The notes beneath the pieces were generated by a model that saw only the letters and a program-made list of their open reading frames with translations, was not told the DNA's origin and did not search any database. This document shows positions 5,616 through 63,888 of a DNA stretch of 64,000 bases, one piece after another (positions within the stretch are counted from its first letter, which is position 1; each line of letters opens with the position of its first letter). Where the stretch lies: contig JAFGSQ010000016.1 in assembly GCA_016934535.1 (NCBI GenBank), positions 70,685-134,684 of the forward strand, given 5' to 3'. Origin of the DNA: a candidate division WOR-3 bacterium (GTDB taxonomy: Bacteria > SDB-A). A program made the position numbers and the translations under genes.

Positions 5616-5619
5616 TGAA

Positions 5620-5961
5620 TCAGGTTTCGTCTTCGGTTTTTTTCAGGCGAAAAAAAAGTGCCGCAGCATTGGCTGCGCAAAACACTGACGTCAAAGCTAT
5701 CCCCGCAATCCCTGAATACTCGAAAAACCTGTATGTCTCGGCTACTATCCAACCGAGTGCTCCAACGACTGCAAAATAAGCGAAATGTTCTTTGAGAATT
5801 TTCTCTTTTTTTGACAATCTTTTCCTGAGGATTTTCGGCTTTTTGTATGATTCTTTCTGTCCGAGCATTACACTCCAGCTTCCGAAAAATAACAAAAGAA
5901 TCCCTCCCGTTATTCTGCTCAATAATACAGTAACCATGGATTTTCTCCTTTTTCCGTGCAA
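5620..5961 (-). CDS. hypothetical membrane protein
   Basis: Its hydrophobic helices look more protein-like than the overlapping Arg-rich ORF in the other frame. Confidence 0.3.
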   Translation of the reverse strand: MHGKRRKSMVTVLLSRITGGILLLFFGSWSVMLGQKESYKKPKILRKRLSKKEKILKEHFAYFAVVGALGWIVAETYRFFEYSGIAGIALTSVFCAANAAALFFRLKKTEDET

Positions 5962-6046
5962 ATTCAGGCAAGTGTTTTGATATTCCGGACGAAACCTGTA
6001 TAATATATCAACACGAAAAGAGAAGCAACTTCAACCGGAAGAAAAC

Positions 6047-6820
6047 ATGAAAATCGCATCCTGGAATGTAAATTCGCTTAAAATGCGTGCCGAATACCTT
6101 CACATCTGGCTCGAAAAAAATGACGTCGATATCATCCTTCTTCAGGAGATAAAAACCACCGACGATAAATTTCCAGTCTCATTTTTTCAAGAAGTCGGCT
6201 ACAGATCATATTATTACGGTCAGAAATCATACAACGGAGTGGCGATCCTTTCAAAAATGACTTTGGAAAATGTCGTCAAGGGGCTTGACGGATATCTTGA
6301 AGAAGAAAAAAGGTTCATATCAGCACAGTTAGGTGATTTTGTCTTTGCCAGCGTTTACGTCCCCAACGGTAAGTCTCCCGAAGACCCGGCTTTTAAAATT
6401 AAGCTCTCTTTTCTCGAAAAACTGAAAAACCATCTGGTAGGCATTCCCAAACCAAATACTGTAGTCGGAGGCGATTTCAACGTGGCTGTTCGGGACATTG
6501 ACGTTTGGGATCCCGTTTACCTCGACGGCTCTATCTGTTTCCACAGTTCTGAAAGACAGAGAATGCAGGCTATTCTAGACAGCGGTTTTGTGGACTCTTT
6601 CGCGAAAACCCATCCCGACAAACAGTCATTCTCTTGGTGGGACTACCGCGACGGAGCTTTTCATAAGAATCACGGTATGAGGCTTGATTATATCCTTGTA
6701 TCCGAAAACCTGTCCGATAGGATCGTCTCAAGTTCTATAGACAGGGAATCGAGGAAAAAAGCGGGAGAGTTGAAACCTTCGGATCACTCTCCCGTTCTGA
6801 TTGAAATCAGGGAGCGATGA
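6047..6820 (+). CDS. xth: exodeoxyribonuclease III
   Basis: The N-terminus (MKIASWNVNSL), the catalytic D/N/H motifs and the C-terminal SDHSPV all match the Xth/APE1 family. Confidence 0.9.
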   Translation: MKIASWNVNSLKMRAEYLHIWLEKNDVDIILLQEIKTTDDKFPVSFFQEVGYRSYYYGQKSYNGVAILSKMTLENVVKGLDGYLEEEKRFISAQLGDFVFASVYVPNGKSPEDPAFKIKLSFLEKLKNHLVGIPKPNTVVGGDFNVAVRDIDVWDPVYLDGSICFHSSERQRMQAILDSGFVDSFAKTHPDKQSFSWWDYRDGAFHKNHGMRLDYILVSENLSDRIVSSSIDRESRKKAGELKPSDHSPVLIEIRER

Positions 6821-21088: not shown

Positions 21089-22699
21089 TTACAAACCGAA
21101 CCAAACAAGCACTGCGTCGTAAATAGAAGCGATAGGTTCGTAATTAACCGCATCCCACTGCATGACTCTTCCTCCAAAACTAAAGGAAACAGATTTTATA
21201 TCCATCGACGGATTAGAATGAAAAACTCCAATCGGAGTTTCAGTCCATGGAACAGGTCCTATCCATTTGTAGATAACTGTAATATTTGGATCGGAAGTTC
21301 TTAGGTTTTCAACATAAGCTAATGCTGGATATACAGGTGGAATGTTATGAGTCATTTCAACATATAAAGTGTCCTGAGGAAGTCCGTATGTCGAAGCATA
21401 ACTGCTTGGAGCTGCTCCATCGAGTACCCAGTTTCCTGAACAATTCGTATAATATTCAACTCCCAGATATTTTTTTACAATAGTACCGCCAATACCGAAA
21501 GTATCAAGCTGATTAAAGAAATTCAAACCAAATGTCCACAACCTTCCACCGCAGTTAAGATAATCTTCAAGCGCCAGAGTATCTCTCGAAAAACCTGAAA
21601 TAAATGTACTCGGATCGTCGCGTACATAAATAACAAGCTTGGCGTTTTTGAGACTGTCTTTGGGTAAGACTCCACTATTTCTGTTAATGAATCTCACAGT
21701 TGTGTTGGGTCTTATTGTGTTGAAAAGGTCCACGTACCAGTTAAGATTATTATAAGTTTGGGTTGTTGCCATCAAAACGAGTATTTCTCCAGCATCAAGA
21801 TTCGGATTTATTGTTCTGAACGCTAAAGAATCTACGTTGCTTTGGACATGGGATGCATTTCTGCCCTGTAAATAAAAAACGTGCAATCCATCATTCAGGT
21901 TCTGGGTCACTGTAATAAACGAATCACCTGCTGTGTTCGGATTCATATCGGTCCATTCTGACCAGATGTCATTATCAATTTTATATCTATACCCGATAGG
22001 CATGTTCCATTCTGGATTGAGCGTATCAATTCTACTCCACCAGAACTGCAGGCCTTTCCATGACGGTGTGCTGTGATCAAGATAAAACATTACCGGTGTG
22101 TCTGTTTTGAACCAAAAATATGGCCTTGTTTCATCGTAATATTTTAGCAGACCAGAGTTTAAATCGTTTGCCATAGTGTCCGGTGGTACAATTTCTATCA
22201 CCGGTTTTTCACTATAAACACTCCATCCTCTTTGAGCTGGCATCGGATCTCTCATACCTTCGTCGTCGACAGCTCTGACGTAAAAATATCCCCTAAAATG
22301 CCATATCTCTCGGACATCGTAAAATGTGTCCGGTACTATTATTACCGTGTCAACAATTGTGTCGAGTACAATTAGCGAATCCGGGACATCGTCGACCGTA
22401 AGTTTCATCGTGTCGCTCGAAGCGAAAATCGAGTCCCAGCCTGTAATTTGGGAAGGATTGACTGAATCTCCTGACACAAACCATTCGTAATAAGCAACAA
22501 CTCCGTCTTCGTCTGTACCGTACCAATAAACCAGAGAAACAGCATTTATAGTGTCTATTCCGGGCGGTACATTGACGATGTAAGTTTCGGGCGGTTTGTT
22601 CTGATTAAGAGATCCAGTTGGGGCTGTGCTGCAACCCAACCAGAGTCCGGCGGCCAAAGCGGCCAGGACGAATAAAGTAGCAATAGTTGTTTTTCTCAT
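21089..22699 (-). CDS. large hypothetical lipoprotein (third gene of the three-lipoprotein operon)
   Basis: It has a lipobox (LWLGCS), is 536 aa and is rich in W/Y/N/D. I recognise no family. Confidence 0.55.
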   Translation of the reverse strand: MRKTTIATLFVLAALAAGLWLGCSTAPTGSLNQNKPPETYIVNVPPGIDTINAVSLVYWYGTDEDGVVAYYEWFVSGDSVNPSQITGWDSIFASSDTMKLTVDDVPDSLIVLDTIVDTVIIVPDTFYDVREIWHFRGYFYVRAVDDEGMRDPMPAQRGWSVYSEKPVIEIVPPDTMANDLNSGLLKYYDETRPYFWFKTDTPVMFYLDHSTPSWKGLQFWWSRIDTLNPEWNMPIGYRYKIDNDIWSEWTDMNPNTAGDSFITVTQNLNDGLHVFYLQGRNASHVQSNVDSLAFRTINPNLDAGEILVLMATTQTYNNLNWYVDLFNTIRPNTTVRFINRNSGVLPKDSLKNAKLVIYVRDDPSTFISGFSRDTLALEDYLNCGGRLWTFGLNFFNQLDTFGIGGTIVKKYLGVEYYTNCSGNWVLDGAAPSSYASTYGLPQDTLYVEMTHNIPPVYPALAYVENLRTSDPNITVIYKWIGPVPWTETPIGVFHSNPSMDIKSVSFSFGGRVMQWDAVNYEPIASIYDAVLVWFGL

Positions 22700-22714
22700 T
22701 TTCCCCCTCCTCGA

Positions 22715-23719
22715 TTACGGAGCCGCAAAATAATAAATCGAAGTGTGAAGAGCTATTCCGATAGCGGCCTGATACTGCGTTGACACATCGATGTATCCTC
22801 TTCTGCCCGACGGAGTGTGTCTTTGGAACCTTATTTCATAAACGTTGTTCTGTGCTCCTCTTATTTCGTCCATGATTCCCCAGACGCTCCCCATTGAAAG
22901 CTGATACTGATAATAGGCATCGGTGCCGAGAGACAACTGTTCGATGTTAGCCGTGTCGGGATTGTCACTGAACTTCAGAAAATATATCGGAACTCCTGCG
23001 GCGTTCGCGGCGTTTATCACAGCCTGTCTGTCTAATGGATCCTCATTATTAACACCGTCACCAAAAACTACTATACCTTTGTTTCCGCTCTGCCCCTGAA
23101 TCTCAGTTATCGCTCTATTTACGCCCCTGAACATTGCACTTCTCCCCCAATAGCTCGGGAAATCGGCTCCGGCTTCAAGAATCGTTATCGATTTCGTGAA
23201 ATCGGTTATGAGTGTGTCATAACTGTGGAATCCGATGATTGCTATGGAATCTCTGGGATCTTTCCAGTTTATGAAACGTTTGATGTATGTTGTTATGGTT
23301 GCATCGTAGGAGGCGACTGACGAAGACATGCTTCTCACAAGAACAATTGAATTGTAATCGTTTCCGCCAGTAGTGTTCAGCGTCCTCATAGTCATATCAT
23401 TGAAGAGAACGGCGTTAGTGTCTATGCTGCCGTCAGGTCTGTAAGACATTTCACGGACAGTGAAATTCGCTTTGTTGAGATTTTCGACGGATATATTTTC
23501 CTGCGTCTTAACGCTCACTCTCACTATTACGTCACCGCCCGAAAACTCGATGCCGAGAATCGAAGTTGTAATGCCTGTAGTCGAGCTGTCGTCTCTGTTT
23601 ATATAAGGAGGAATTGTTGGCGGTTGATCGATAACGCTTTTCGAGCAACCGGCGAAAACAGTCAAAAGCGAAATCAGAAACGTCAGAGATGTAAAAATTG
23701 TTCTGCCATTTATTTTCAT
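22715..23719 (-). CDS. lipoprotein with a vWA-like domain (degenerate MIDAS)
   Basis: It has a lipobox (FAGCS). The vWA-like alternation of strand and helix motifs is present (IVLVRSMSSS, IAIIGF, IVVFGDGVNN, VPIYFLKF), but the DxSxS Asp is replaced by Arg. Confidence 0.45.
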   Translation of the reverse strand: MKINGRTIFTSLTFLISLLTVFAGCSKSVIDQPPTIPPYINRDDSSTTGITTSILGIEFSGGDVIVRVSVKTQENISVENLNKANFTVREMSYRPDGSIDTNAVLFNDMTMRTLNTTGGNDYNSIVLVRSMSSSVASYDATITTYIKRFINWKDPRDSIAIIGFHSYDTLITDFTKSITILEAGADFPSYWGRSAMFRGVNRAITEIQGQSGNKGIVVFGDGVNNEDPLDRQAVINAANAAGVPIYFLKFSDNPDTANIEQLSLGTDAYYQYQLSMGSVWGIMDEIRGAQNNVYEIRFQRHTPSGRRGYIDVSTQYQAAIGIALHTSIYYFAAP

Positions 23720-23732
23720 CTGGTCCTCCGTA

Positions 23733-24677
23733 TTAATACACGTATCTGAGTTTGGGAACGGGTTGATAGTTCCAGCGGAAATAAATCACGGCTGAATCCA
23801 AATCACTTGCCGGAGGAGACATATATATGCTGTCTACGCTGATCTTCAGATACCGTTGCATCGTGCTCTGCAACCAAACAATGTCTCCCATGACGATAGG
23901 AGTTGTATACAAATACTGGTCTCCTATCGGAGCTATCCTAAGCTCAGCCCAGCTGGAATCAGAACCGACATTATAAATACCTGCTTGTTTTCCTCCGGAA
24001 AACGGCGGATTGAATGCGGAATTTATCTGAAGGAATGCGAGGGCTGTATCGGTTACAATAGTTGTATCGTAAACCCATAAAGTGTCAATGAATGTAGAGT
24101 CTATTATGAAAACGGTAGTGTCTATTCTGTCCAACGAGTCGCACGGATCGTACAGGTACACTTCGGCAATTGAGTGTAGCTGGGAATTTCCGAAACCGAT
24201 GACTTCAAATGTATTTTCATCCCATATCGCGGCAAAATTTCCGTTGAGTCCGTATGCGACCATGTGGGAAGAACCGGATTTTGTAGTTGTGCTGACCCTG
24301 CCGACTGTATCTGCGGACCAGACATTCCCGCTGCTCTCTCTCGAAAAAAGGACAGTATACGTACCAAGCTGTTGTGCGTCGTTGAGCGTCCAGCTGTTGA
24401 AATAAGTTGTGTCGCCGCTGACGACTTCGTATGCCGGGAATACAGTGTCTATAGTGTTCCCGAAAATTACTCTGTATCTTCTCGCCTGGGTTATTATGTC
24501 CCATGTGAATTTGACGCCTAGACCGTCGGTAGTAGTGCCCTGAGCGGCAAAATGGTAATCAATCACTATGGTGCCTTCGTGTCGCTTCCCTTCGTCCAAA
24601 GGAATAGTCGAACATCCCACGAATATGAACATCACCAGGAAAACGGCAGATAGTATAAACCCCGTTTTTCTAACCAT
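23733..24677 (-). CDS. hypothetical lipoprotein (first gene of the three-lipoprotein operon)
   Basis: It has a lipobox (FVGCS). I recognise no family. Confidence 0.5.
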   Translation of the reverse strand: MVRKTGFILSAVFLVMFIFVGCSTIPLDEGKRHEGTIVIDYHFAAQGTTTDGLGVKFTWDIITQARRYRVIFGNTIDTVFPAYEVVSGDTTYFNSWTLNDAQQLGTYTVLFSRESSGNVWSADTVGRVSTTTKSGSSHMVAYGLNGNFAAIWDENTFEVIGFGNSQLHSIAEVYLYDPCDSLDRIDTTVFIIDSTFIDTLWVYDTTIVTDTALAFLQINSAFNPPFSGGKQAGIYNVGSDSSWAELRIAPIGDQYLYTTPIVMGDIVWLQSTMQRYLKISVDSIYMSPPASDLDSAVIYFRWNYQPVPKLRYVY

Positions 24678-40655: not shown

Positions 40656-42425
40656 TCAGTAACGGTTGAATTTTCTGCTGAAAGTCGCCTGTCCTATCCT
40701 GGCGAGCACGAAATAACTTCCCGCCTGGATTCCCTCTCCAATATCCTCTGATAATAAGTGGTGTCCCTCCGAATACCTGCCTTCAGCGACGACATAGACG
40801 CTTCTTCCTGTGACGTCAAAAATCTTTACTGAAACGTCGGTCATCTCAGTGAGAGAGAATTCGACTCTCAACAATCCCTCCGAAAAGACGGACGCGAATT
40901 CCACCTGCGCCGGAACGACAGTGACAGGCATCTCTTCAACGGAATTAATTTCGTAAGACACGGTGTAGAATCCTTCCGGAGCCGTGTAGGGATCCCTTTC
41001 GGTCCTTCCGGAGGAGTCTGTCGCCTGGATAAAGTAATCAATAACAGCAGTGTCGTCGGCGACCGGTTGAGGCAAAATACACCAAAAACTGTCGGGAAAG
41101 CCGGTTACCCTCTCCATTGTCTCAAAATTTTCAAAAACGCTGTCTCCGTGGAACTTCCACGCGAAAAACACCTGATCGCTTATTACGCCTTCGCCGCTGT
41201 AATCATGGACGAGAGCGCGGATTCTCAGTTCGAAAGGATCTATACCGGGGTCGTGATCTACAAAAAGCATTCCGGGGTCGAAAATAGCCATAGTCCTGCA
41301 GTGGATGGCGTCTGTGGGTTCAAAACTGTAATCCGTATAACCTACTGCGTCGTAACCGGGCATCTCCCTCTCGTAAAAGTTGATCGCGGCAGTGTCGTAC
41401 AATGTATTGCCGGTCACCGGCACGTAGACTTTATTGTTGAGTATCAGGCTGTTGACGTAAGCGGCGTATATGCTATCAGGACAGTTGAGCCTGACGACCT
41501 CGTAATTTCTGCCGTAACAGTTTGTAAGAGTCGTAATGTAATTCGCGAGCTGATTGAGAGCGGCGTCGTCAACTCCGTTCCTTATGACGACAACTTTCTC
41601 TTCCGAAAGAAATTTAGCATAACAATCTATGTGATTTATGTAGCTTCCGAGCGGGTCGTTGAAAGTGTAATAGTTGGAAATTCCCCAGTAGGCGAGCATC
41701 AAAGCGTTGACCGAATCTACGGACAAAGACGGGTTGTCGTCTGAATATACGTTGTTGCTCGACATCGCTCTGCCGTGGCCGTCGCACATCATATTGCCGC
41801 CCGTGTGAGCGAGCATTGTTTTCCACAGTTTTATTCCGAGAGCCGGTGCGAGGTCCCAGTTGGACTCGTCGTCGTCTATCCTGCCGTGAGTGTATCTTCT
41901 GTTGTAGACGTGGTCTGAAATTCCCACTGAATCGTTTCCGTCGAAGACCGACCAGGGGCCGTAATCCCTCGTCCAGTAGCTGTTGGTTGGAGTCGAAACG
42001 AAAGTTACGTCGGAGAGAGAAATGCCGTGGCTCGTGAAAGCCGACTGGGCGGACGAGACGTTGTCCGTAAGACAGGTGACGTGGAGATCCTGAGCGAGAT
42101 CTGATATAAGATTCCACGGCAGTCCGACGGGATATCTTATGAGAACGGAAACCGCCGGTTCCCACTCGGCGCACATCCTGACGGGCGCGGCGGGAGGATC
42201 GGTCGGCACAACGGGATCTTTTCCCATGGAAGGATAATATTCAGGCAGAAGCGGTTTTAAAGGGCCTGGATCGTGAGGAGGATGATTGACAGACATTCCG
42301 TCGACGATTAGTTCGGCGAATTCTCCGGAAAACGGCCCTTCTTCATGTCCGGGTATCCAGGTATTCGCGGAAGTGAGTACAATTGTCAGAACGAATATTA
42401 AAAACATGTCACCTTCCTTTTTCAA
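40656..42425 (-). CDS. secreted agmatine deiminase / Porphyromonas-type peptidylarginine deiminase (PPAD) family enzyme with a T9SS-type C-terminal sorting domain
   Basis: It has a signal peptide and the guanidino-modifying motifs WTRDYGP, GGN..DG.G, HID and IHC (catalytic Cys). The last 75 aa or so (VSVKIFDVTGRSV...GSYFVLARIGQATFSRKF) match the Por secretion tail pattern. Confidence 0.65.
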   Translation of the reverse strand: MKKEGDMFLIFVLTIVLTSANTWIPGHEEGPFSGEFAELIVDGMSVNHPPHDPGPLKPLLPEYYPSMGKDPVVPTDPPAAPVRMCAEWEPAVSVLIRYPVGLPWNLISDLAQDLHVTCLTDNVSSAQSAFTSHGISLSDVTFVSTPTNSYWTRDYGPWSVFDGNDSVGISDHVYNRRYTHGRIDDDESNWDLAPALGIKLWKTMLAHTGGNMMCDGHGRAMSSNNVYSDDNPSLSVDSVNALMLAYWGISNYYTFNDPLGSYINHIDCYAKFLSEEKVVVIRNGVDDAALNQLANYITTLTNCYGRNYEVVRLNCPDSIYAAYVNSLILNNKVYVPVTGNTLYDTAAINFYEREMPGYDAVGYTDYSFEPTDAIHCRTMAIFDPGMLFVDHDPGIDPFELRIRALVHDYSGEGVISDQVFFAWKFHGDSVFENFETMERVTGFPDSFWCILPQPVADDTAVIDYFIQATDSSGRTERDPYTAPEGFYTVSYEINSVEEMPVTVVPAQVEFASVFSEGLLRVEFSLTEMTDVSVKIFDVTGRSVYVVAEGRYSEGHHLLSEDIGEGIQAGSYFVLARIGQATFSRKFNRY

Positions 42426-53621: not shown

Positions 53622-54941
53622 TCACTTCAGATGGTTTTGCAAGTAAAGGTAATTAGGCGTCAGTCGGCCCCTGTGGGTTATTACTGCGTTCTTTATCTCG
53701 CCAGGCAATTCGAGGTTTTCAAAAGGAAGGTTAAAATCAGCTTCCGCGATTTCAGGAATAAACTTCATAAGAACACGGCTGAAAAAATTCGACGATTCGA
53801 GCGGAAGCTCGCTCGGAAGTATATCAACTGCGAGGATAACTATTCCTTCGCCTTCTATACCGTCAGAAATGTTCCCGTCGGAAGGGTTGTATACAAAAAC
53901 AGGATCGCCCGGACCTGTTGTTTTAACAGTTATCTCCACTCCACCGGCTATGTCGCAACTGACATCTCCTATCACTTTTAGTTTTCTGGATCCTGATTTC
54001 CAAAGCCTTTTGGCATTTTCTGACGTAAAAGTTCTGGGATATCTATCGTCCCAATAACTTCCGTTTACGAGCACCGATATTTCTCCGGAATATTTTTCGA
54101 AAACACATTCGTACTGTCCGGGATTTTCGTAATAATGATTCAGATCGAATTTAATCTTCGGATCTTTTCTGACAAAAAGATCCTCTTCCCTGAAAACCGT
54201 CTTGTAAACGTTACGCCTGGAATAATCTGCCGACGAGAGTTTCAGGAGTTCTTCCGGCGAAATTGATACGACGGGAAGAAGATCGAAAATTTCCTGAGCT
54301 CCCGACGAAACATTTCCATAACCCGTAAACGCTACCGTCAAAGGAGATATTATCTCCGGCAAACCGTCTTTTTTTATGGCTTCTCCGGCAAGTTTGACGT
54401 CGTTTTTAACTTCCTCAAGGTCTTTGTATTCCAACGCTCTTTTTATATTCCTGAAAGGAGTGCTTATCCCTTCGTATGAAAGCCTCTTTCCAAGAGCCCA
54501 CAAAGTGTCAATCGCACCGGCGAGTCCGGCGTATCTTCCAAAAAAGATGAGTCTTTTACCCTGATCGTCCTTTATGGTTTCGTAGTCAATCAGGGTTATG
54601 TTTTTCTTCAGTATTTCTTTGAGCATTTCCATGTTGTACTTCTGCCCTTTGATTACGTGGGCGAAAAACATGTAAACTTTTTCTTCAAGGAGATATTCAG
54701 GCTTGACTTCCTTTATCCCGAGGATCAGATCCGCTTCTATACCTGTGAAGTTATCTACCGATTCGGCTCCTACCTTCTCGTATTCTTCAACAGGGATAAT
54801 CCTGTCCCGCGATTTTTCGACAAAAACCTTCAATCCTGATTCGATCAGTTTTTTTACGTCGTTTGGCACGATAGGGCTTCTCTTTTCAAAAGGTCCCTTG
54901 TTCTCTCTTCTGATGCCGATTTTTTTCATATCATTCTCCAA
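53622..54941 (-). CDS. saccharopine dehydrogenase (L-lysine-forming) / lysine-ketoglutarate reductase family protein (AlaDH/PNT fold)
   Basis: The N-terminus is GIRRENKGPFEKRSPIVP, followed by ADLILGIK and RLIFFGRYAGLAGAIDTL. This is collinear with LKR domains. Confidence 0.55.
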   Translation of the reverse strand: MENDMKKIGIRRENKGPFEKRSPIVPNDVKKLIESGLKVFVEKSRDRIIPVEEYEKVGAESVDNFTGIEADLILGIKEVKPEYLLEEKVYMFFAHVIKGQKYNMEMLKEILKKNITLIDYETIKDDQGKRLIFFGRYAGLAGAIDTLWALGKRLSYEGISTPFRNIKRALEYKDLEEVKNDVKLAGEAIKKDGLPEIISPLTVAFTGYGNVSSGAQEIFDLLPVVSISPEELLKLSSADYSRRNVYKTVFREEDLFVRKDPKIKFDLNHYYENPGQYECVFEKYSGEISVLVNGSYWDDRYPRTFTSENAKRLWKSGSRKLKVIGDVSCDIAGGVEITVKTTGPGDPVFVYNPSDGNISDGIEGEGIVILAVDILPSELPLESSNFFSRVLMKFIPEIAEADFNLPFENLELPGEIKNAVITHRGRLTPNYLYLQNHLK

Positions 54942-55660: not shown

Positions 55661-56686
55661 TTGTCTGAAAAGAACAAGTGGTATAAAATTCAAAACATGG
55701 ATTTTAACCGAGCAAGTCAAATATCCGGCGGCTTTTCCGGAAAAGCGGTTGTCGTAATAGGCGACGTCATGCTTGACGAGTATATCTGGGGCAATGTCGA
55801 CAGGATATCTCCCGAAGCTCCCGTCCCAGTTGTCGATGTAGTGAAAGAATCATACCAGCTGGGCGGAGCGGCAAATGTCGCTCATAACTTAAAAGCCCTC
55901 GGCGCCGAGGTTATTCCTGTCGGAACGATAGGCCGTGACACGGCGGGAGAAAAGCTAGCGGAAATTTTGGCATCTCTATCAATATCCTGCGACGGAATTT
56001 TTAGAGAAAAAGACAGAAACACAACTCAGAAAACAAGAATAATTGCCCACTCTCAGCAAGTCGTAAGAGTTGACAGAGAGAAAAGATCGGCCATAACACG
56101 AAGCACTTCCGAAGCTGTAATCGGATTTGTCGAAAAAACAATACCGCGTTGTGATGCTGTTTTGTTTGAGGATTACGACAAAGGACTTCTCGGAGGCGAA
56201 CTGGTGAAAATCATTTTAAACGTCGCTTCTTCAAATTTGAAACCTGTATTCGTCGATCCGAAATTCGACAATTTTTTTGAATACAGAAACGTTAAATTAT
56301 TCAAGCCGAACCAGAAAGAATTGTCGAAAGCAACCGGCTTGAAATGCTCGACGGAGGAAGAAATCCGGATAGCAGTGTCGGTCGTCATAGACAGAATCGG
56401 ATGTGATTTTCTTCTACTGACTTTGGGTGAAAAAGGAATGCGTGTCTTTTTCAGGGACAAAAGAGAACCCCTGATAATACCGACCAAAGCGAGAGAAGTT
56501 TACGACGTCAGCGGCGCTGGGGACACAGTGATAAGCGCCGTATGCCTTTCTCTTCTATCCGGAGCGGACATCGAAGAATCAGCCGTCATCGGAAGCCACG
56601 CAGCCGCTGTCCAGCTGAAAAAGATCGGCGCGCAAACCGTCAATGTTAATGAGATTCTGGAAAGTTTTAAAAAACACGAAGATTAA
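55661..56686 (+). CDS. hldA: D-glycero-beta-D-manno-heptose 7-phosphate kinase (RfaE domain I / HldA)
   Basis: It is a PfkB-family sugar kinase with the RfaE-I N-terminus (KAVVVIGDVMLDEYIWG..ISPEAPVPVV). Confidence 0.8.
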   Translation: MSEKNKWYKIQNMDFNRASQISGGFSGKAVVVIGDVMLDEYIWGNVDRISPEAPVPVVDVVKESYQLGGAANVAHNLKALGAEVIPVGTIGRDTAGEKLAEILASLSISCDGIFREKDRNTTQKTRIIAHSQQVVRVDREKRSAITRSTSEAVIGFVEKTIPRCDAVLFEDYDKGLLGGELVKIILNVASSNLKPVFVDPKFDNFFEYRNVKLFKPNQKELSKATGLKCSTEEEIRIAVSVVIDRIGCDFLLLTLGEKGMRVFFRDKREPLIIPTKAREVYDVSGAGDTVISAVCLSLLSGADIEESAVIGSHAAAVQLKKIGAQTVNVNEILESFKKHED

Positions 56687-56695
56687 AACACCAAG

Positions 56696-57193
56696 ATGAG
56701 AGACAACATATATGTTTTCGGAAAAGACAACAGTGAAATTCGTGAATTTTTAGAACATGCTTCCCTGTCGGGAAAAACAGTCTTTACCAACGGCTGTTTC
56801 GACATAATTCACTTAGGCCACGTAGAAGTTTTAAGGTATTGTAAAACCTTTGGGAGCACACTGTTAGTTGGTCTCAACAGCGACGAATCAATCCGGAGAC
56901 TTAAAGGCGACAAGAGACCTATTCTGATCGAATCTGAAAGAGCTTCGCTTCTGCGTGCCGTAAGATACGTCGATTGCGTTATTATTTTCGGAGAAGACAC
57001 TCCGTTTGAATTAGTAAATTTCGTCAAACCTGACGTAATTGTCAAGGGAGGCGATTACACTCCGGAAACGGTCGTAGGAAGCGGTGTGGCATCAGAGACC
57101 CATATTTTCCCTCTCGTCGAAGGAGCGGGCACTTCAAAAATCATTGACAAGATAATCAAAAGGTACTGCGAAAGGAGAATTGATGAGAATTGA
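56696..57193 (+). CDS. hldC: D-glycero-beta-D-manno-heptose 1-phosphate adenylyltransferase (RfaE domain II / HldC)
   Basis: It has the cytidylyltransferase motif (TNGCFDIIHLGH), and it directly follows the kinase gene. Confidence 0.8.
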   Translation: MRDNIYVFGKDNSEIREFLEHASLSGKTVFTNGCFDIIHLGHVEVLRYCKTFGSTLLVGLNSDESIRRLKGDKRPILIESERASLLRAVRYVDCVIIFGEDTPFELVNFVKPDVIVKGGDYTPETVVGSGVASETHIFPLVEGAGTSKIIDKIIKRYCERRIDEN

Positions 57194-57488
57194 AGAGCAT
57201 CCTGTGATTGACTTTAAAAGAAAAAATAAGATTCATTTCTTTTTTGAGGACAAAAAAATAGAAGCTTACGAAGGAGAAACCGTTGCTGCCGCTCTGATAG
57301 CCAGCGGAAATATCACTTTCAGGATCACAGACAAGCACGACCGGCCGAGAGGACTTTTCTGCAGTGTGGGAAAATGCGCGAGTTGTCTTATGGTAGTCGA
57401 CGGAAAACCAAACGTGATGACATGTGTAACTCCTGTCAGAGAAGGCATGCTCGTTAAAAGACAGAAAGGAAAAGGAGACCTGACTTGA
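57180..57488 (+). CDS. small [2Fe-2S] subunit (HcnA / sarcosine-oxidase-alpha-N-like) of a heteromeric dehydrogenase
   Basis: It is 102 aa with a Cys cluster (CSVGKCASCLMVVDGKPNVMTC) as in HcnA/OoxA N-termini. Confidence 0.6.
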   Translation: MMRIEEHPVIDFKRKNKIHFFFEDKKIEAYEGETVAAALIASGNITFRITDKHDRPRGLFCSVGKCASCLMVVDGKPNVMTCVTPVREGMLVKRQKGKGDLT

Positions 57489-58585
57489 AATTCCGCACTG
57501 ACGTAGCAATAATCGGAGGCGGCCCCGCGGGACTTTCCGCCGCTCATGAGGCATCTGCATACGGAATGAAAGTCGACGTCTTCGACGACAATTTCATTCT
57601 CGGCGGCCAGCTGATCAAGCAGACGCACAAATTTTTCGGGTCTAAAGAGCATCTTTGCGGCTTCAGAGGAATAGACATAGCTGAAATTCTCATAGACAAC
57701 TGCAAAAAAAACGGCGTATCCATACATACAGAAGCTTGCGCCACCGGCATATACGGAAATACAATAGGAATAGCTTATCCTGACAGTTTTGAAGAAATAG
57801 AAGCCAAGGCGATCGTCGTAGCTACGGGAGCATCAGAAAATTCGATAAACTTCGTCAACAACGACTTGCCTGGCATATATGGCGCAGGCGCTATACAGAC
57901 TCTCATGAACGTTTTCGGTGTAAAACCTGCAAAACGGGTTTTAATGATAGGATCGGGCAACATAGGGCTCATTGTTTCTTACCAGCTCATCCAGGCCGGA
58001 GTTGAAATCGCGGCCGTCGTCGAAGCCCTCCCCCGTGTCGGAGGTTACCTCGTTCACTCTGCAAAGCTTCGCAGAACAGGAGTTCCAATTCTCACAAAAC
58101 ACACGATTGTGAAAGCCGAAGGCGACGGTGAAAAAGGAGTAAATGCCGCAATAGTTTCTGAAATTGACAGGAATTTTAATCCTGTCGCAGGAACCGAGAA
58201 AAAATTCGAGGTTGATTCGATATGTTTGGCCGTCGGACTGACGCCTCTTTCAGACCTTCTCGAACTGGCCGGCTGCAGAATGAAAATTGTTCCAGAGTTG
58301 GGAGGAAAACTCGCCGTTCACGACGAATATATGACGACGACGAGAAAAGACGTGTTTTTATGCGGTGACGTATCCGGCATCGAGGAAGCCGTCACTGCAA
58401 CTCTTGAAGGCAAACTCGCCGGATTATCCGCGGCTCTGTCGATTTCGCGGGAAAGACATGATGAAATTCAAAAATCGCGAGAAAGCATATTAGAGCAATT
58501 GAGGATTTTCAGAGACGGCCCTTTCGGAGAAAAAGCGAGAGTTGGAAATTCAAAATTAATCGGAGAGTTTATAAATGAAAAATAA
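57485..58585 (+). CDS. FAD/NAD(P)-binding pyridine nucleotide-disulfide oxidoreductase-type subunit (HcnB / PDH1-alpha-like)
   Basis: It has two Rossmann dinucleotide motifs: DVAIIGGGPAGLSAA and KRVLMIGSGNIGL. Confidence 0.65.
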   Translation: MKFRTDVAIIGGGPAGLSAAHEASAYGMKVDVFDDNFILGGQLIKQTHKFFGSKEHLCGFRGIDIAEILIDNCKKNGVSIHTEACATGIYGNTIGIAYPDSFEEIEAKAIVVATGASENSINFVNNDLPGIYGAGAIQTLMNVFGVKPAKRVLMIGSGNIGLIVSYQLIQAGVEIAAVVEALPRVGGYLVHSAKLRRTGVPILTKHTIVKAEGDGEKGVNAAIVSEIDRNFNPVAGTEKKFEVDSICLAVGLTPLSDLLELAGCRMKIVPELGGKLAVHDEYMTTTRKDVFLCGDVSGIEEAVTATLEGKLAGLSAALSISRERHDEIQKSRESILEQLRIFRDGPFGEKARVGNSKLIGEFINEK

Positions 58586-59084
58586 TGTTTCAAACGACGG
58601 ATTACCCTGCCGCGATTCTCTGGCTAATTCTTTTCCTGACAAAAATGCGCTCGCCGTTTCAGCAAAAGCAGTCATAGAATGCTTTCAGGAAATACCCTGC
58701 AATCCATGCGTTGGAGCTTGTCCGCGAGGAGCCATATCCATTGCCGAAGGAATAAACGGAATACCGTCAATAGACCACACTTTGTGCAACGGCTGTTCAC
58801 TCTGCGTGTATCAATGCCCCGGACTGGCGATCTTCGTCGTTGGTTTAGACAGGAAAGACCCCGCGAAGGGTTTTGTTTCTCTTCCGTACGAATTTCTGCC
58901 GGTACCTGAAAAAGACGACATTGTTGACGTCCTCGACAGAGAAGGCAAAGTCATATCAGAGGGAAAAATTCTCAAGGTTAACAAGTCAAAAGCCACAGAC
59001 AGAACTTCAGTCGTAACGGTCGAAGTTCCTTCGAACTTGCTTGACAAAGCCAGATTCATCAAGACTAAAAGAGGCTCAAAATGA
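58575..59084 (+). CDS. 4Fe-4S dicluster ferredoxin-like subunit
   Basis: It has two CxxCxxC-type Cys clusters: CNPCVGACP and CNGCSLCVYQCP. Confidence 0.6.
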   Translation: MKNNVSNDGLPCRDSLANSFPDKNALAVSAKAVIECFQEIPCNPCVGACPRGAISIAEGINGIPSIDHTLCNGCSLCVYQCPGLAIFVVGLDRKDPAKGFVSLPYEFLPVPEKDDIVDVLDREGKVISEGKILKVNKSKATDRTSVVTVEVPSNLLDKARFIKTKRGSK

Positions 59085-59398
59085 AAGACATGAAAATAAT
59101 CTGCAGGTGTCAGGACGTCACTGAGCAGGAAATAGTAGACGCGATAAGAAAGTACAACCTCACAAGCGTTGACGAAGTGAAAAGACTTACGAGAGCCGGT
59201 ATGGGGCATTGCCAGGGCAAAACCTGCAGAAAACTCGTAGAACAGATATTGTTTAGGGAAAACGGCTTTTTATCCGATGAAGACACCTGGTCCATCTCGA
59301 GACCTCCTGTCAAAAGCATTCCCGTTAAGTTCCTCGCGGAATCGGAAGAGCCGTTTGACGCCGTTGTGGCGAGAGGAAGAGGAGGCCAGCATGGCTGA
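59081..59398 (+). CDS. BFD-like [2Fe-2S]-binding subunit
   Basis: CRCQDV...GHCQGKTC is the BFD-like [2Fe-2S] motif. Confidence 0.6.
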   Translation: MKDMKIICRCQDVTEQEIVDAIRKYNLTSVDEVKRLTRAGMGHCQGKTCRKLVEQILFRENGFLSDEDTWSISRPPVKSIPVKFLAESEEPFDAVVARGRGGQHG

Positions 59399-60545
59399 TT
59401 TTCCGAAAACGGCCGACTGCGTCATAATCGGCGGAGGAATAATAGGCGCTTCCATTGCCTACGAACTCTCAAAAAAGAACATCAAAAATATAGTCGTCGT
59501 GGAAAAAAACACTGTCGGATCCGGAAGCACTGGAAGATGCGGCGGAGGAATAAGGGCTCAGTGGTCCACGCCGGAAAATGTCAAACTGGCGATGGCATCC
59601 GTGAAAAGATTCAGAGAACTCGAAGAAGAACTCGCCTCGGTCACCGAATACGAAGAAGGCGGTTATCTGATACTCGCTCACTCCGACACCGAAATGAATC
59701 AGTTCAGGGAAAACGTCCTGATGCAGAAAAAACACGGCCTCGAGGTCGAAATCCTCACTGCCGAAGAAACAAAAAAAATAGTCCCTCTCATCAACACGGA
59801 AAAAATAACAGGCGCCACGTGGTGTTCGACGGACGGATCGATAAATCCTTTTCTTATAAATTTTGCGTACATGAAAAATGCCATGGACAAAGGGGTTTCA
59901 CTTTTCACAAGAACCGAGGTTCTGTCGATTAAAACCGGCGATTCAAAGATAACCGGAGTCTCCACCACGAGAGGTGAAATATCCTCTCCCGTTGTCGTCA
60001 ACGCCGCCGGAGGATATGCCGGATTCGTCGGATCCACAGCCGGACTCAACTTGCCTCTGACTCCACACAGACATGAAATTCTTGCCACGGAACAGGTCAA
60101 CCGATTTTTCAGAAACATGATAATGTCTTTCGAATACAACATATATTTCAGGCAGGTCAAGGACGGCGGCATCGTCGGCGGACAAACAAATCCCGGAGAA
60201 AAACCCGGAACCGAAGTCAATTCCGGCATCGCTTTCCTCAAAGAGATGTCCGTTAAACTCAATCATTTCATTCCGGCGCTGGGAAACGTCAAAATTCTCA
60301 GGCAATGGGCCGGACTTTACTGCATGAGCCCTGATGCACAACCGATACTCGGCGAAATCAGCGGTCTCGCCGGTTATTTTCACGCCTGCGGTTTCTCAGG
60401 ACACGGATTGATGCTCGCTCCGAGAGTCTCGGTTCTAATGGCAAACACGATAACGGACCCTTCTTTCTCGGACCCCGATCTTGAAAGACTCGGAATTGAC
60501 AGGTTCGAGAAGGGAATCGTCGCTCATGAAAAGTCGGTGGTATGA
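59391..60545 (+). CDS. FAD-dependent oxidoreductase, DAO family (sarcosine oxidase beta / HcnC / PDH1-beta-like)
   Basis: It has the N-terminal Rossmann motif (DCVIIGGGIIGASIAYEL) and DAO-family features through its length. I placed the start at the ATG at 59391, which overlaps the stop of the preceding gene (ATGGCTGA). Confidence 0.7.
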   Translation: MADFPKTADCVIIGGGIIGASIAYELSKKNIKNIVVVEKNTVGSGSTGRCGGGIRAQWSTPENVKLAMASVKRFRELEEELASVTEYEEGGYLILAHSDTEMNQFRENVLMQKKHGLEVEILTAEETKKIVPLINTEKITGATWCSTDGSINPFLINFAYMKNAMDKGVSLFTRTEVLSIKTGDSKITGVSTTRGEISSPVVVNAAGGYAGFVGSTAGLNLPLTPHRHEILATEQVNRFFRNMIMSFEYNIYFRQVKDGGIVGGQTNPGEKPGTEVNSGIAFLKEMSVKLNHFIPALGNVKILRQWAGLYCMSPDAQPILGEISGLAGYFHACGFSGHGLMLAPRVSVLMANTITDPSFSDPDLERLGIDRFEKGIVAHEKSVV

Positions 60546-60892
60546 GAGAGACACACAGAAAGAAAAAAGTTGAGGAAACGATAGCCAAGGAAATAGCCAA
60601 AATCCTTAATTCATTCACCAGAAAAAACAATCTGTCCATGTCCACAGTTACGGGAGTTCTCGTTGACTCCGCTTTGCAAAATGCGAAAATCAGAGTGAGC
60701 GTCTTCGGCTCCACTGACGAACAGGCGAAAACTGTCGAATCTCTCAACGCGAATAAAAAAACGCTTAGATACCTTCTCGCCCAGAATATCAGGATCAAAT
60801 ACATGCCGGACATCCATTTTATTCAAGATCAAAGCAGGGAGATAATTGAAAAAATCGAATCATTGATGAAAGAAGAAAACGATGACAATTGA
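60542..60892 (+). CDS. rbfA: ribosome-binding factor A
   Basis: It has the KH-like RbfA pattern (VTGVLVDSALQNAKIRVSVFGS). Confidence 0.8.
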   Translation: MRETHRKKKVEETIAKEIAKILNSFTRKNNLSMSTVTGVLVDSALQNAKIRVSVFGSTDEQAKTVESLNANKKTLRYLLAQNIRIKYMPDIHFIQDQSREIIEKIESLMKEENDDN

Positions 60893-61835
60893 AAAAGTTT
60901 CTGACAAGCCCTCTTTTTTCGAAGGAACCGATCTCACTTCAATAAAATCAGCCGACGTTTACACGCACTCTTCACCCGACGGTGACGCAATAGGTTCAGC
61001 TCTGGCCATGCAAAGCATTTTCGAAAGCATCGGCATTAAAACAAGAGTGTTCTGCGAAGGACCTTTCCCAAGGAAATACTCTTTTTTACCTGTAGTGAGA
61101 TTTCATAAAAAGTTCCCGGAAATTTTTTCCGAATCGGCGTTTTTCGTAGACTGCGGAGACGTAAAAAGACTGGGAAACACTTTTTCAGACATTCTTAAAT
61201 ATTATAGTTTAAAGATAAACATAGACCATCATGTCGACAATAAACTTTTCGGGGACATAAACATAGTTGACCCTAACGCTTCTTCAACGGCCGAATTGAT
61301 AGCGAGCGTGATAGGAACAAACAGTATTGATCTTCAGACGGCAGAATACCTTTACATCGGTATACTCTCCGACACTTACGGTTTTTCAACTTCCAGCGTG
61401 TCTTCGAAAACTTTTATGATCGCTTCCTCCCTCATAGAAAAGGGAATAAATTCGAACAGGATATGGAAAGAGATTTTCAGACTGCCCTCCGACACTCTGC
61501 TTTTTTACGCCGAGGTTCTCAGAACTTCGGAAACAGACAACGACATTATTTACTGTAAAGTGACCAAAGACCTGATGGATGATTACTCGGTTTCTGAAGA
61601 AGACACGGAAGGATTGGCCAATTATCTTCTACAGCTTAAAGACATAGACACAGTAGTTCTTTTAAGGGAGAGAAACGGTTCCACGAGACTCAGTTTCAGA
61701 TCTTCCGGAAACAAAGACGTCGGCGAACTGTCGAGAAAACTCGGCGGCGGCGGTCACAAACTCGCTTCCGGAGCGATAATAGAACATGATTTAACGCGAG
61801 CTCTTTCAATAGTAAAAAACACGCTCAAAGTCTGA
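60882..61835 (+). CDS. nrnA: DHH-family bifunctional oligoribonuclease / pAp phosphatase
   Basis: It has the DHH motifs (HSSPDGDAIGS, NIDHH) and the DHHA1 GGGGH motif. Confidence 0.75.
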   Translation: MTIEKVSDKPSFFEGTDLTSIKSADVYTHSSPDGDAIGSALAMQSIFESIGIKTRVFCEGPFPRKYSFLPVVRFHKKFPEIFSESAFFVDCGDVKRLGNTFSDILKYYSLKINIDHHVDNKLFGDINIVDPNASSTAELIASVIGTNSIDLQTAEYLYIGILSDTYGFSTSSVSSKTFMIASSLIEKGINSNRIWKEIFRLPSDTLLFYAEVLRTSETDNDIIYCKVTKDLMDDYSVSEEDTEGLANYLLQLKDIDTVVLLRERNGSTRLSFRSSGNKDVGELSRKLGGGGHKLASGAIIEHDLTRALSIVKNTLKV

Positions 61836-61854
61836 CGAAATTCAAGGAGGAAAC

Positions 61855-62664
61855 ATGAACACCTTAGGTATAGTACTGTCAACTTCCGTTGTAGGAGCAC
61901 TCGGACTCTGCTTTGGCATTGTCCTCAGCGCAGCCGCAAAAAAATTCAAAGTGGAAACAGACCCCAGAGTGGAACAGATTCTAAAACTCCTCCCGGGAGC
62001 CAATTGCGGTGCCTGCGGCGCTCCGGGATGCTCGGCTTACGCCAAGGGAGTTGTCGAAGGCAAATATCAACCTTCCGGATGCATACCCGGAGCCGGGGTT
62101 ACAGCGGAAAAAATCGCAAAGATTCTCGGGGTCAACGCTGAGACGGAAACCAAAAAAACAGCTTTCCTTCTCTGCGGAGGCGACAGGGAACAATCTCCCG
62201 ACATAGGAAAATACCAGGGCTTCATGACGTGCAGAGCGGCAAATCTCGTCATTGCCGGGATGAAATCGTGTGTTTACGGGTGTATAGGTTTCGGCGACTG
62301 CGTGTCGGTTTGCCCTTTCAACGCAATCAAAATGGGAGCAAAGGGCTTGCCTGAAATTGACGCGGAAAAATGCACGGGTTGCGGAAAATGCGTCGAAGCA
62401 TGCCCGAAAGGCGTTCTGAAACTTTTCGAATCAACTGTCCCAATAGTAATAAGATGCTCTAATCCGGAAAAGCTCAAAAATGTAAAAGATGTCTGCAAAG
62501 TCGGTTGCATCGCCTGTTCACTCTGTGTAAGGAAATCTCCCGAAAATTCACTCGAGATGAACGCCAATCTGCCCCGACTAAGGGTAAATTACCCAACAGA
62601 CAAATCTCTCTGGCTTGAAGCGATAAAAGCATGTCCCTCAAAATGCATCACTGAGGGCGTATAA
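61855..62664 (+). CDS. RnfB-like membrane-anchored polyferredoxin (stand-alone; no other rnf genes in the window)
   Basis: It has an N-terminal TM helix, the Cys-rich segment GANCGACGAPGCSAYA typical of RnfB, and then multiple 4Fe-4S CxxCxxCxxxCP motifs. Confidence 0.65.
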   Translation: MNTLGIVLSTSVVGALGLCFGIVLSAAAKKFKVETDPRVEQILKLLPGANCGACGAPGCSAYAKGVVEGKYQPSGCIPGAGVTAEKIAKILGVNAETETKKTAFLLCGGDREQSPDIGKYQGFMTCRAANLVIAGMKSCVYGCIGFGDCVSVCPFNAIKMGAKGLPEIDAEKCTGCGKCVEACPKGVLKLFESTVPIVIRCSNPEKLKNVKDVCKVGCIACSLCVRKSPENSLEMNANLPRLRVNYPTDKSLWLEAIKACPSKCITEGV

Positions 62665-62665
62665 T

Positions 62666-63451
62666 ATGTTCAGATTATTGTTGGACCTGGGACCATTTAA
62701 AATATACAGTTACGGTTTCTTGCAGTTCCTCGCTTTCCTGGCCGGTATACTTCTTGCGACAAAGCGTGCCAAAAAACGCGGTGTGGACACTAACGTGGTT
62801 TACGATCTCGCGTTCTGGATACTTGTCGGCGGAATACTGGGGGGAAGATTGTGGTACGTGTTAGAGCATTTCGGATACTTCAGAGAAAACTTCTGGGAAG
62901 TTTTACAGGTTTGGCACGGTGGGATGGTAATATACGGCGGTTTGTTCCTGGGTTTTCTGACCGGTTTTATTTACATCAAAAAAAATAAACTCGGTTTCTT
63001 AAAAATAGCCGACATAGTTTCGCCCTCGATCACACTAGGACTTTTCATTGGCAGAATAGGCTGTTTTATGAACGGCTGCTGTTACGGAGTGGAAAGCGAC
63101 AGATTCGGCATTCTCTTTCATGACTATTCAAATTGCAATCTGATACCAGATGCGCCCGTTGGAACCAAAGTTATCCCGACACAGCTCATCATGTCTGCTT
63201 CCGCTCTCTTTCTTACTTTTTTCCTTCTTCTGATAGATAAAAGGAATAAAATTGTTGGAGCCGTTTTTTCCTGGCTCATGATTTTGTACGGCGTTCACAG
63301 GTTTTCAATAGATTTTCTGAGACACTACGAAGGATCGGCTCTGATTTTCAGACATCTCAGCCTTTCACAGGTGTTCAGCCTGCTTCTTGTCCTTACCGGC
63401 ACTGTCTTTCTGTTTTTTCTAAACTCCAAAAACAAAAAAACGGCACCTTGA
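62666..63451 (+). CDS. lgt: prolipoprotein diacylglyceryl transferase
   Basis: It has the Lgt signature region (YGFLQFLAFLAGILLA, HGGMVIYGG, GRIGCFMNGCCYG). Confidence 0.85.
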   Translation: MFRLLLDLGPFKIYSYGFLQFLAFLAGILLATKRAKKRGVDTNVVYDLAFWILVGGILGGRLWYVLEHFGYFRENFWEVLQVWHGGMVIYGGLFLGFLTGFIYIKKNKLGFLKIADIVSPSITLGLFIGRIGCFMNGCCYGVESDRFGILFHDYSNCNLIPDAPVGTKVIPTQLIMSASALFLTFFLLLIDKRNKIVGAVFSWLMILYGVHRFSIDFLRHYEGSALIFRHLSLSQVFSLLLVLTGTVFLFFLNSKNKKTAP

Positions 63452-63888
63452 ACTACATTGACGCAGTAATAATCACGGCCGTGGCCGCAGCTTTTGTCAC
63501 TGGGGCGGTTCTTGGAATAGTCAGGCTTGTTTTTTATCTCCTGGGTCTTCTTTTAGGAGCCATTGCCGCTTCGTATGTGGAGGCTTCCCTGCCATACAGC
63601 CCATGGGTGGTTCGTATTGTTTCAATTTCCGTCTGGATCCTTGTCAGTTTTTCCAGCGGTGCCCTGGGATGGATGCTTCAGAAAAAACTCAGGAACTTCG
63701 GCGTCTCATTTCTGGACAGGCTGTGGGGATCGTTGTTTTCAATAATTTCAGTATCTTTTGCTCTCACTGTCGTTTTATTGTACGTAAAATCAATATATCC
63801 GCCTGCGTCAGTTGTCATTGACAATTCATTCGCGGCGGATTTTCTTTTTTCCTCCACTCGATCAGTATTTTCAAGTTTTAACAGGTAG
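63448..63888 (+). CDS. cvpA: CvpA-family membrane protein
   Basis: It has four TM helices and a CvpA-like N-terminus (NYIDAVIITAVAAAFVTGAVLGIVR). Confidence 0.5.
   Translation: MNYIDAVIITAVAAAFVTGAVLGIVRLVFYLLGLLLGAIAASYVEASLPYSPWVVRIVSISVWILVSFSSGALGWMLQKKLRNFGVSFLDRLWGSLFSIISVSFALTVVLLYVKSIYPPASVVIDNSFAADFLFSSTRSVFSSFNR

Follow-up and report, generated by a model that had tools for sequence, protein, structure and literature searches.

A five-gene cluster of a candidate division WOR-3 bacterium probably encodes a PDH1-type L-proline dehydrogenase complex with a divided alpha subunit

In a 64,000-nucleotide stretch of DNA from a candidate division WOR-3 bacterium (assembly GCA_016934535.1, contig JAFGSQ010000016.1; the whole stretch is hereafter called the window), five consecutive genes probably encode a soluble flavin and iron-sulfur (Fe-S) L-proline dehydrogenase complex of the PDH1 type, in which the alpha subunit is divided into two polypeptides. 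The genes, denoted here as modules A to E, all lie on the forward strand:

Module A, 57183-57488, + strand: Fer2_4 [2Fe-2S] protein, 101 aa, ATG start.
Module B, 57485-58585, + strand: Pyr_redox_2 flavoprotein with two dinucleotide sites, 366 aa, TTG start.
Module C, 58575-59084, + strand: gamma-type 8-Cys di-[4Fe-4S] protein, 169 aa.
Module D, 59081-59398, + strand: delta-type BFD-like [2Fe-2S] protein, 105 aa.
Module E, 59391-60545, + strand: beta-type DAO-family flavoprotein binding flavin adenine dinucleotide (FAD), 384 aa.

The domain types that a first-pass annotation had given to these open reading frames (ORFs) agree with the Pfam assignments, namely Fer2_4 in A (4e-27), Pyr_redox_2 in B (3e-34), Fer4/Fer4_7 in C (~1e-6), Fer2_BFD and SO_alpha_A3 in D (2e-17 and 7e-10, respectively) and DAO in E (3e-74). 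Judged from the protein sequences, the five polypeptides of the complex would together bind two FAD, two [2Fe-2S] and two [4Fe-4S] clusters and, probably, one flavin mononucleotide (FMN). The gene cluster is a bacterial member of the known PDH1 kind and, with similar clusters in many uncultured anaerobes, a fairly ordinary one.

The resemblance to the alpha, beta, gamma and delta subunits of the Thermococcales PDH1, already proposed in the first-pass annotation, is borne out by comparison with Pyrococcus horikoshii PH1748-51 and by the gene order in two Thermococcus species. The P. horikoshii OT3 locus (L086) was reached from the sequence of 1Y56_B through a second paralogue, P0330, and is taken to be the PH1748-PH1751 cluster, which has been expressed as a 'proline/NADH dehydrogenase' (PMC8703374). 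A gamma protein labelled 'Thermococci' was dropped as a bridge to Thermococcales when its source (L049) proved to be Theionarchaea/Methanofastidiosia. The P. horikoshii locus encodes an alpha subunit of 482 aa (Fer2_4 and Pyr_redox_2), a gamma of 168 aa (Fer4), a delta of 88 aa (Fer2_BFD and SO_alpha_A3) and a beta of 377 aa, with all four genes overlapping by 4 nt; the corresponding order in T. profundus, pdhA-pdhF-pdhX-pdhB, is the same in T. litoralis (PMC4364671). By BLASTP, module A matched residues 4-100 of the P. horikoshii PDH1 alpha (52.6% identity over 97 aa, E 2e-34) and module B its residues 122-478 (52.3% over 363 aa, E 2e-129, 369 bits), with C matching gamma (40.8% over 147 aa, E 4e-32), D matching delta (40.2% over 87 aa, E 7e-20) and E matching beta (34.4%, E 4e-71). 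These module-by-module matches argue that the window encodes a PDH1-type complex whose alpha has been cut between the Fer2_4 domain and the flavoprotein core.

Every PDH1 module is thus represented, in the identical order alpha-gamma-delta-beta and in overlapping genes, with similar sizes in P. horikoshii and the window (gamma 168 and 169 aa, delta 88 and 105 aa, beta 377 and 384 aa) and with all Fe-S cysteines and nucleotide motifs in common. The features of PDH1, that is, a DAO-family beta, an alpha with Fer2_4 and two ADP motifs, a gamma of ~19 kDa with Cys clusters, a small delta and the gene order, were all found. The differences are that the 101-aa Fer2_4 protein and the 366-aa flavoprotein of the window form one chain in P. 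horikoshii, that the window beta is only 34-36% identical and falls outside the Thermococcales subclade, and that the gene cluster is embedded among housekeeping genes of a mesophile-like bacterium. The first-pass view that the Fe-S modules are split into separate polypeptides here holds for Fer2_4, which is newly separate, but not for gamma and delta, which are separate in PDH1 already. The separate Fer2_4 polypeptide is the sole structural peculiarity of the complex, and it recurs in most bacterial homologues as well as in HcnA/OdhC-type subunits.

The cofactor sites are intact. All 16 Fe-S cysteines of modules A, C and D are invariant across 61-68 homologues and P. horikoshii: C60, C65, C68 and C81 of module A (Cx4Cx2Cx12C; 61 homologues and P. 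horikoshii), C36, C42, C45 and C49 together with C71, C74, C77 and C81 of module C (68 homologues), and C8, C10, C44 and C49 of module D (CxCx33Cx4C) are each 100% conserved. The spacing in A is one of the two [2Fe-2S] motifs given for the superfamily in PMC4575208, and D has the CxC...Cx4C form of the second, with a longer spacer (33 versus 15-20 residues). In module B, both glycine motifs, G11xG13xxG16 and G156xG158NxG161, are invariant, and position 180 (E180), at the end of the second beta-strand, is acidic (E or D) in 59 of 63 homologues, so that an NAD(H)-type rather than an NADP(H)-type site is expected. Module E carries R304-Q-W306, an instance of the R-x-W motif assigned to an FMN held between alpha and beta (PMC4575208), and retains 61 of the 62 positions with a family-wide conservation of 95% or more; most of these also occur in both characterised betas of P. 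horikoshii. In the AlphaFold model of module C (pLDDT 88.5), a ferredoxin domain precedes a beta-rich C-terminal domain (residues ~95-169, pLDDT ~90), the conserved residues of which are P104, E106, P109, P111, R122, G124, T144 and R160. A Foldseek search of the gamma model against the PDB gave no significant whole-fold match (best E 0.02), the nearest structural hint being the beta subunit of APS reductase (1JNR_B, E 0.03). The gamma family is large, with 320 clusters at 50% identity reaching E<=1e-10 among 1.84 billion representatives; the lengths of stand-alone, CD-fused and BCD-fused proteins are all represented in these clusters.

The best solved relative of module E in the PDB is the beta subunit of L-proline dehydrogenase (1Y56_B, E 4.5e-77, 262.7 bits), with lower scores for SoxB (133 bits, 1e-37), dimethylglycine dehydrogenase (126 bits), glycine oxidase (107 bits) and the glycerophosphate oxidase GlpO (45 bits). 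That structure belongs to PDH2 of Pyrococcus (PH1363/PH1364, PDB 1Y56, alpha4beta4), the alpha subunit of which, PH1363 (1Y56_A), combines in a single chain an A-like region (residues 10-88), a B-like core and a D-like C-terminus (414-491). Unlike the window complex, PDH2 is devoid of a 4Fe-4S gamma subunit, and the A-like domain of PH1363 has lost the cluster cysteines (see also PMC1949818); module B scores 64 bits against PH1363, versus 369 bits against the PDH1 alpha. Of the phylogenies proposed in the first-pass annotation, one of beta was computed by neighbour-joining with SoxB as the outgroup (51 sequences, 379 columns, 200 bootstraps), and all PDH-type betas, that of the window included, were split from SoxB with 100% bootstrap support. 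The Thermococcales-type betas, with both PH1751 and PH1364, constitute a 100%-supported clade; the window beta lies outside it, in the remaining large group of sequences from A-B-C-D-E gene clusters, the monophyly of which is weak (43%). The window beta is 36.7% identical to PH1364, 35.8% to PH1751 and 27-28% to SoxB. Between the window and P. horikoshii PDH1, the alpha, gamma and delta modules are 40-52% identical, yet the betas only 34% (59391-60545 versus 7001-8134 of L086). This difference, together with the single divergent clade that the Thermococcales betas of both PDH1 and PDH2 make up, hints that the catalytic subunit evolved fast or was exchanged within Thermococcales.

A scan with one genome per species yielded 80 loci, or 81 with the window's own contig, for which module content was mapped by phmmer. 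The A-B-C-D-E order was found in ~70 of these 80 loci, in many phyla of both Bacteria and Archaea, and never changes; its recurrence in independent loci of other species indicates that the five genes are real rather than chance ORFs. The arrangements of the 81 loci, with fused modules written together, were as follows:

A, B, C, D, E all separate: 31 loci, the commonest form, including the window's own contig.
A, B, C, D, E with a weak extra C-type match downstream: 1 locus.
AB, C, D, E: 16 loci; the archaeal alpha form, also in Eisenbacteria and Zixibacteria.
A, B, CD, E: 10 loci; Clostridiaceae and Calditrichales.
A, BCD, E: 5 loci; Thermotogae and Planctomycetota.
A, BC, D, E: 1 locus.
E alone: 5 loci.
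Other loci, seemingly truncated by the end of a contig: 12.

The form with all modules separate is therefore the commonest, not an oddity, and the archaeal enzyme appears as one branch of a widespread family in which modules fuse and split freely. Our literature searches on bacterial PDH1 homologues found nothing relevant. In three of the five loci with E alone, the beta gene is an orphan, and the 8 kb to each side of it contain no homologue of A, B, C or D (7983-9128 in L024, 7950-9095 in L059 and 7992-9140 in L039); those of L024 and L059 come from other WOR-3 lineages.

The first-pass annotation considered the substrate not evident, and the window itself is indeed uninformative in this respect, but the neighbourhoods in other lineages point to proline. 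In eight loci (Thermotogae, Clostridia and Halanaerobiales), a dehydrogenase of delta-1-pyrroline-5-carboxylate (P5C; L-glutamate gamma-semialdehyde) is encoded 12-178 nt from the gene cluster on the same strand, and the representative tested (from L073) scored 797 bits against an NCBIfam cut-off of 648. In 15-17 loci, mostly of Bacillota, module E is followed after 15-80 nt by a ferredoxin of ~134 aa and then by an AFOR_N/AFOR_C enzyme of ~718 aa. Both types of aldehyde-oxidising neighbour fit P5C/glutamate semialdehyde as the product, making proline the best-supported substrate of the family. A PrdR-like sigma-54 activator lies upstream in about eight of the ferredoxin/AOR loci (793.9 against a cut-off of 795), an SNF-family transporter directly upstream in seven loci, and PepQ-like Xaa-Pro peptidases and M19 dipeptidases occur in four and three loci, respectively. 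These elements recur as an apparent operon consisting of the PrdR-like activator, the SNF transporter, A-B-C-D-E, the ~134-aa ferredoxin and the ~718-aa AOR-family enzyme, which is complete in L040, L047, L050, L056 and L076 (Clostridia-type) and is without the ferredoxin in L071; at least the ferredoxin and AOR pair is present in L023, L025, L029, L046, L055, L060, L078 and L080.

For the window complex, proline is our best guess, based on the conserved active-site positions of beta. We predict that its beta subunit converts L-proline to P5C and that its alpha core has NADH dehydrogenase activity, such as has been reported for the PDH1 alpha subunit; the P5C dehydrogenases adjacent to eight homologous loci and the NAD(H)-type second Rossmann motif of module B support these two predictions indirectly. 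In the scheme that we propose, module E would oxidise L-proline to P5C on its FAD, and the electrons would exit through an FMN at the beta/alpha interface, the presence of which we infer from the R-x-W motif. They may then be relayed by the [2Fe-2S] cluster of delta (D), the two [4Fe-4S] clusters of gamma (C) and the [2Fe-2S] cluster of Fer2_4 (A), presumably in this order, to the FAD of the alpha core (B), the second Rossmann site of which would bind NAD(H). The physiological acceptor would be NAD+ and/or a ferredoxin docking on gamma; along this alternative path, electrons could leave or enter the complex through gamma to a ferredoxin.

Several points weigh against proline oxidation by the window complex. 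Module E is only ~36% identical to either P. horikoshii beta, the literature searched gives no characterised enzyme from the window-type beta group, and an opine dehydrogenase subfamily placed near archaeal L-proline dehydrogenase does not use proline (PMC4575208), which means that clade proximity alone does not fix the substrate. When P5C dehydrogenase, AOR, PrdR, PepQ and SNF queries were compared with the 64-kb window, only weak ferredoxin-domain matches were returned, and the window holds no P5C dehydrogenase, prolidase, PrdR or proline transporter. The conserved neighbours in the window lineage are instead housekeeping genes and an LKR-like gene, and relatives of the window also carry a piperideine-6-carboxylate (P6C) dehydrogenase. 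Finally, the E0' of the P5C/proline couple is ~-0.12 V versus -0.32 V for NAD+, so that NAD+ cannot be reduced by proline unaided; with the proline couple being too positive, a simple scheme from proline to NAD+ is thermodynamically incomplete.

It is conceivable, if rather doubtful, that PDH1-type complexes are electron-confurcating (or bifurcating), in which case reduced ferredoxin bound on gamma would, together with proline, reduce NAD+. In many Bacillota, the small ferredoxin and the AOR-family enzyme encoded alongside, with glutamate semialdehyde as substrate, could then serve to re-reduce the ferredoxin, and the net reaction would be proline + 2 NAD+ -> glutamate + 2 NADH. Such a mechanism, if true, would remove the thermodynamic obstacle to oxidising proline anaerobically and would represent a new class of flavin-based electron-confurcating enzyme as well as an undescribed anaerobic route from proline to glutamate. 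Our literature searches found nothing linking AOR, glutamate semialdehyde and proline, and nothing on bifurcation with proline. In the window, a stand-alone RnfB-like polyferredoxin is encoded at 61855-62664 (+), as the first-pass annotation had pointed out; it has an N-terminal membrane helix, lies three genes downstream of module E and scores 106 bits on TIGR01944 (cut-off 68.7). Its position is kept in all close relatives, and no other rnf gene was found among the window ORFs scanned. The RnfB-like polyferredoxin could be a redox partner of the complex, and it is the sole candidate in the window.

Among the alternatives to proline, a role in the lysine catabolism of the window lineage is unlikely but deserves consideration. 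The complex would oxidise L-pipecolate or saccharopine and feed piperideine-6-carboxylate/aminoadipate semialdehyde to P6C dehydrogenase, in the saccharopine version replacing a missing saccharopine dehydrogenase. The LKR-like gene noticed in the first-pass annotation is a monofunctional homologue (53622-54941, - strand) located 2.2 kb upstream and matching the LKR domain of human AASS at 1e-75, and two relatives at 66-68% identity (L002 and L082) encode an L-piperidine-6-carboxylate dehydrogenase (731 bits against a cut-off of 730) between LKR and rfaE1. No Sacchrp_dh-type gene was found among the subset of window ORFs that was scanned; saccharopine is chemically an opine, and a passage of PMC4141209 cites an L-pipecolate activity of the Pyrococcus alpha4beta4 proline dehydrogenase. 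However, the LKR and P6C dehydrogenase genes are on the opposite strand, with two heptose-nucleotide genes and one SH3-like gene lying between them and the gene cluster, and the P6C dehydrogenase is absent from the window itself. The association is confined to the shallow lineage of the window and did not occur at any other locus; the aldehyde dehydrogenases that are coupled directly to the gene cluster are P5C dehydrogenases, and module E, with 61 of 62 family-conserved residues retained, gives no sign of a specificity switch. In the relatives, the LKR/P6C dehydrogenase region lies at 4621-6147 (L082) and at 527-1827 and 2495-4021 (L002), the LKR homologue of L002 being broken into two ORFs, perhaps because of a frameshift or because it is a pseudogene.

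The other alternatives concern better-known members of the superfamily. JGI labels many homologues 'sarcosine oxidase subunit beta', and the best NCBIfam matches of the gene cluster are the soxA and soxB subfamily models; heterotetrameric sarcosine oxidase (SoxABDG) has the same alpha/beta scaffold, with its A3 domain fold recurring in module D, and the hydrogen cyanide synthase HcnABC is likewise composed of Fer2_4, Pyr_redox_2 and DAO proteins. An enzyme of the sarcosine/dimethylglycine or glycine type is nonetheless very improbable. The scores fall far below the cut-offs (126 bits against 1164 for soxA and 192.9 against 529 for soxB; TIGR01372/TIGR01373), the Pfam scan of the five ORFs detected no folate-type GCV_T domain and neither SoxD nor SoxG, and SoxB is an outgroup to the PDH betas, on which grounds sarcosine oxidase was rejected. 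In addition, the 8-Cys gamma subunit is absent from both sarcosine oxidase and HcnABC, and the neighbouring P5C dehydrogenases do not suit glycine or sarcosine. The first-pass annotation had also matched the gene cluster to HcnABC, the octopine/nopaline oxidases and D-hydroxyproline dehydrogenase (LhpBEF). These enzymes, like the flavin opine dehydrogenases OdhABC/OoxAB, are indeed related but do not match equally well: being devoid of a 4Fe-4S subunit, they are more distant relatives. They share a cofactor logic of two FAD, one FMN and two kinds of [2Fe-2S] motif, with the R-x-W motif in a DAO-family beta, an ADP-binding motif in alpha, Cx4Cx2Cx11-12C in a separate Fer2_4 subunit and a CxC...Cx4C motif (PMC4575208). 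The counterparts of module A are HcnA and the gamma subunits of opine and D-hydroxyproline dehydrogenases, and those of module D are the C-terminal domains of the PDH2 alpha, HcnB and OdhA and the A3 fold of SoxA.

An opine or D-hydroxyproline dehydrogenase of the OdhABC/LhpBEF type might be favoured by the separate Fer2_4 polypeptide and by one OdhB2 subfamily said to lie near archaeal L-proline dehydrogenase (PMC4575208), but we give this identity very little credence. As defined from PMC4575208, these enzymes have three subunits, with the BFD motif inside alpha and no 8-Cys ferredoxin subunit, whereas a separate D and an 8-Cys C are conserved throughout the present family; the three-subunit enzymes also act on other substrates and occur in aerobic hosts. 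The conserved flanking gene families include no epimerase or deaminase of the hydroxyproline pathway and no opine transporter. By tblastn against 72,556 plasmids (Rhizobium, Agrobacterium and others), the best matches were distant FAD oxidoreductases at 29-33% identity (112-187 bits), and the Agrobacterium plasmid match that we inspected was a DMGDH-like fusion rather than OoxB. Anaerobic glycerol-3-phosphate dehydrogenase, whether GlpABC-like or of the Thermococcus G3PDH/NADH-oxidase type, is excluded for practical purposes, even though, among the NCBIfam models, module D matches GlpA best, in its C-terminal BFD region (46.5 bits), and module E reaches 82.8 bits on the same model. These resemblances are at domain level and far below the cut-off of 552.8 (TIGR03377); module E prefers the soxB model (192.9 bits) to GlpA and the PDH beta (262.7 bits) to GlpO (45 bits), a ranking that effectively refutes the grouping with GlpABC that the first-pass annotation had named as fatal to its proposal. 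Neither GlpB nor GlpC is present, and no cluster neighbourhood contains a glycerol kinase or facilitator.

With PDH1-type proline dehydrogenase as the preferred identity, 'sarcosine oxidase' and 'FAD-dependent oxidoreductase' labels in uncultured anaerobes, including WOR-3, Eisenbacteria, Riflebacteria, Muiribacteriota, Atribacterota, Zixibacteria, Thermotogae and Clostridia, would be better read as PDH1-type proline dehydrogenase clusters, so that proline would gain an entry point when the metabolism of these peptide-fermenting lineages is reconstructed. A candidate ferredoxin-linked route for anaerobic proline oxidation is suggested by the conserved association with a ferredoxin and an AOR-type enzyme.

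The five genes are tightly packed. Each start is preceded at 5-8 nt by a GGAG/GAGG Shine-Dalgarno-like motif; for the TTG start of module B, GGAG lies 7 nt upstream, and another TTG (57180) is found 3 nt 5' of the module A ATG. A 422-aa ORF for module E, starting at 59277, was discarded as an over-extension; the homologues and the gene calls on related contigs begin at the equivalent of 59391. The overlaps reported in the first-pass annotation exist but measure 4, 11, 4 and 8 nt (A/B, B/C, C/D and D/E), not 4-8 nt throughout, and the translational coupling that it proposed is plausible but not particular to these genes, as unrelated flanking genes overlap likewise. The rfaE domain II gene (ending at 57193) overlaps module A by 11 nt, the ribosome-maturation gene rbfA (starting at 60542) overlaps the module E stop by 4 nt (ATGA), and nrnA and rbfA overlap by 11 nt. 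Overall, 12 functionally unrelated genes at 55661-63888 (+), in the order rfaE1, rfaE2, A-B-C-D-E, rbfA, nrnA, rnfB-like, lgt and cvpA, are joined by overlaps or by gaps of at most 19 nt, so the overlaps are a property of the compact genome and not of the dehydrogenase cluster. Promoter-like sites in the window were at chance level (15 versus 11.0 +/- 3.3), terminator-like sites were modestly more frequent than in shuffled sequences (20 versus 11.2 +/- 4.0), with none between genes, and the sole Rfam matches were two tRNAs distant from the gene cluster; with these results, no separate transcription unit can be defined.

The window has a GC content of ~44%, and its host is a mesophile-like uncultured bacterium. 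The exact module E protein is recorded on one 12-kb Logan metagenome contig, and its closest named relative (79% identity) belongs to a candidate division WOR-3 bacterium. Contigs of relatives (66-80% identity) share the layout, with murI-smpB-yhbY-LKR-like-SH3-like on one strand and rfaE1-rfaE2-A-B-C-D-E-rbfA-nrnA-rnfB-like-lgt-cvpA on the other. Housekeeping functions account for the annotated ORFs in the remainder of the window. Elsewhere in the window, three consecutive ORFs of 536, 334 and 314 aa at 21089-24677 (-) have no Pfam match at 1e-6, and a 589-aa protein encoded at 40656-42425 (-) carries a PAD_porph (agmatine/peptidyl-arginine deiminase) domain confined to residues 84-380.

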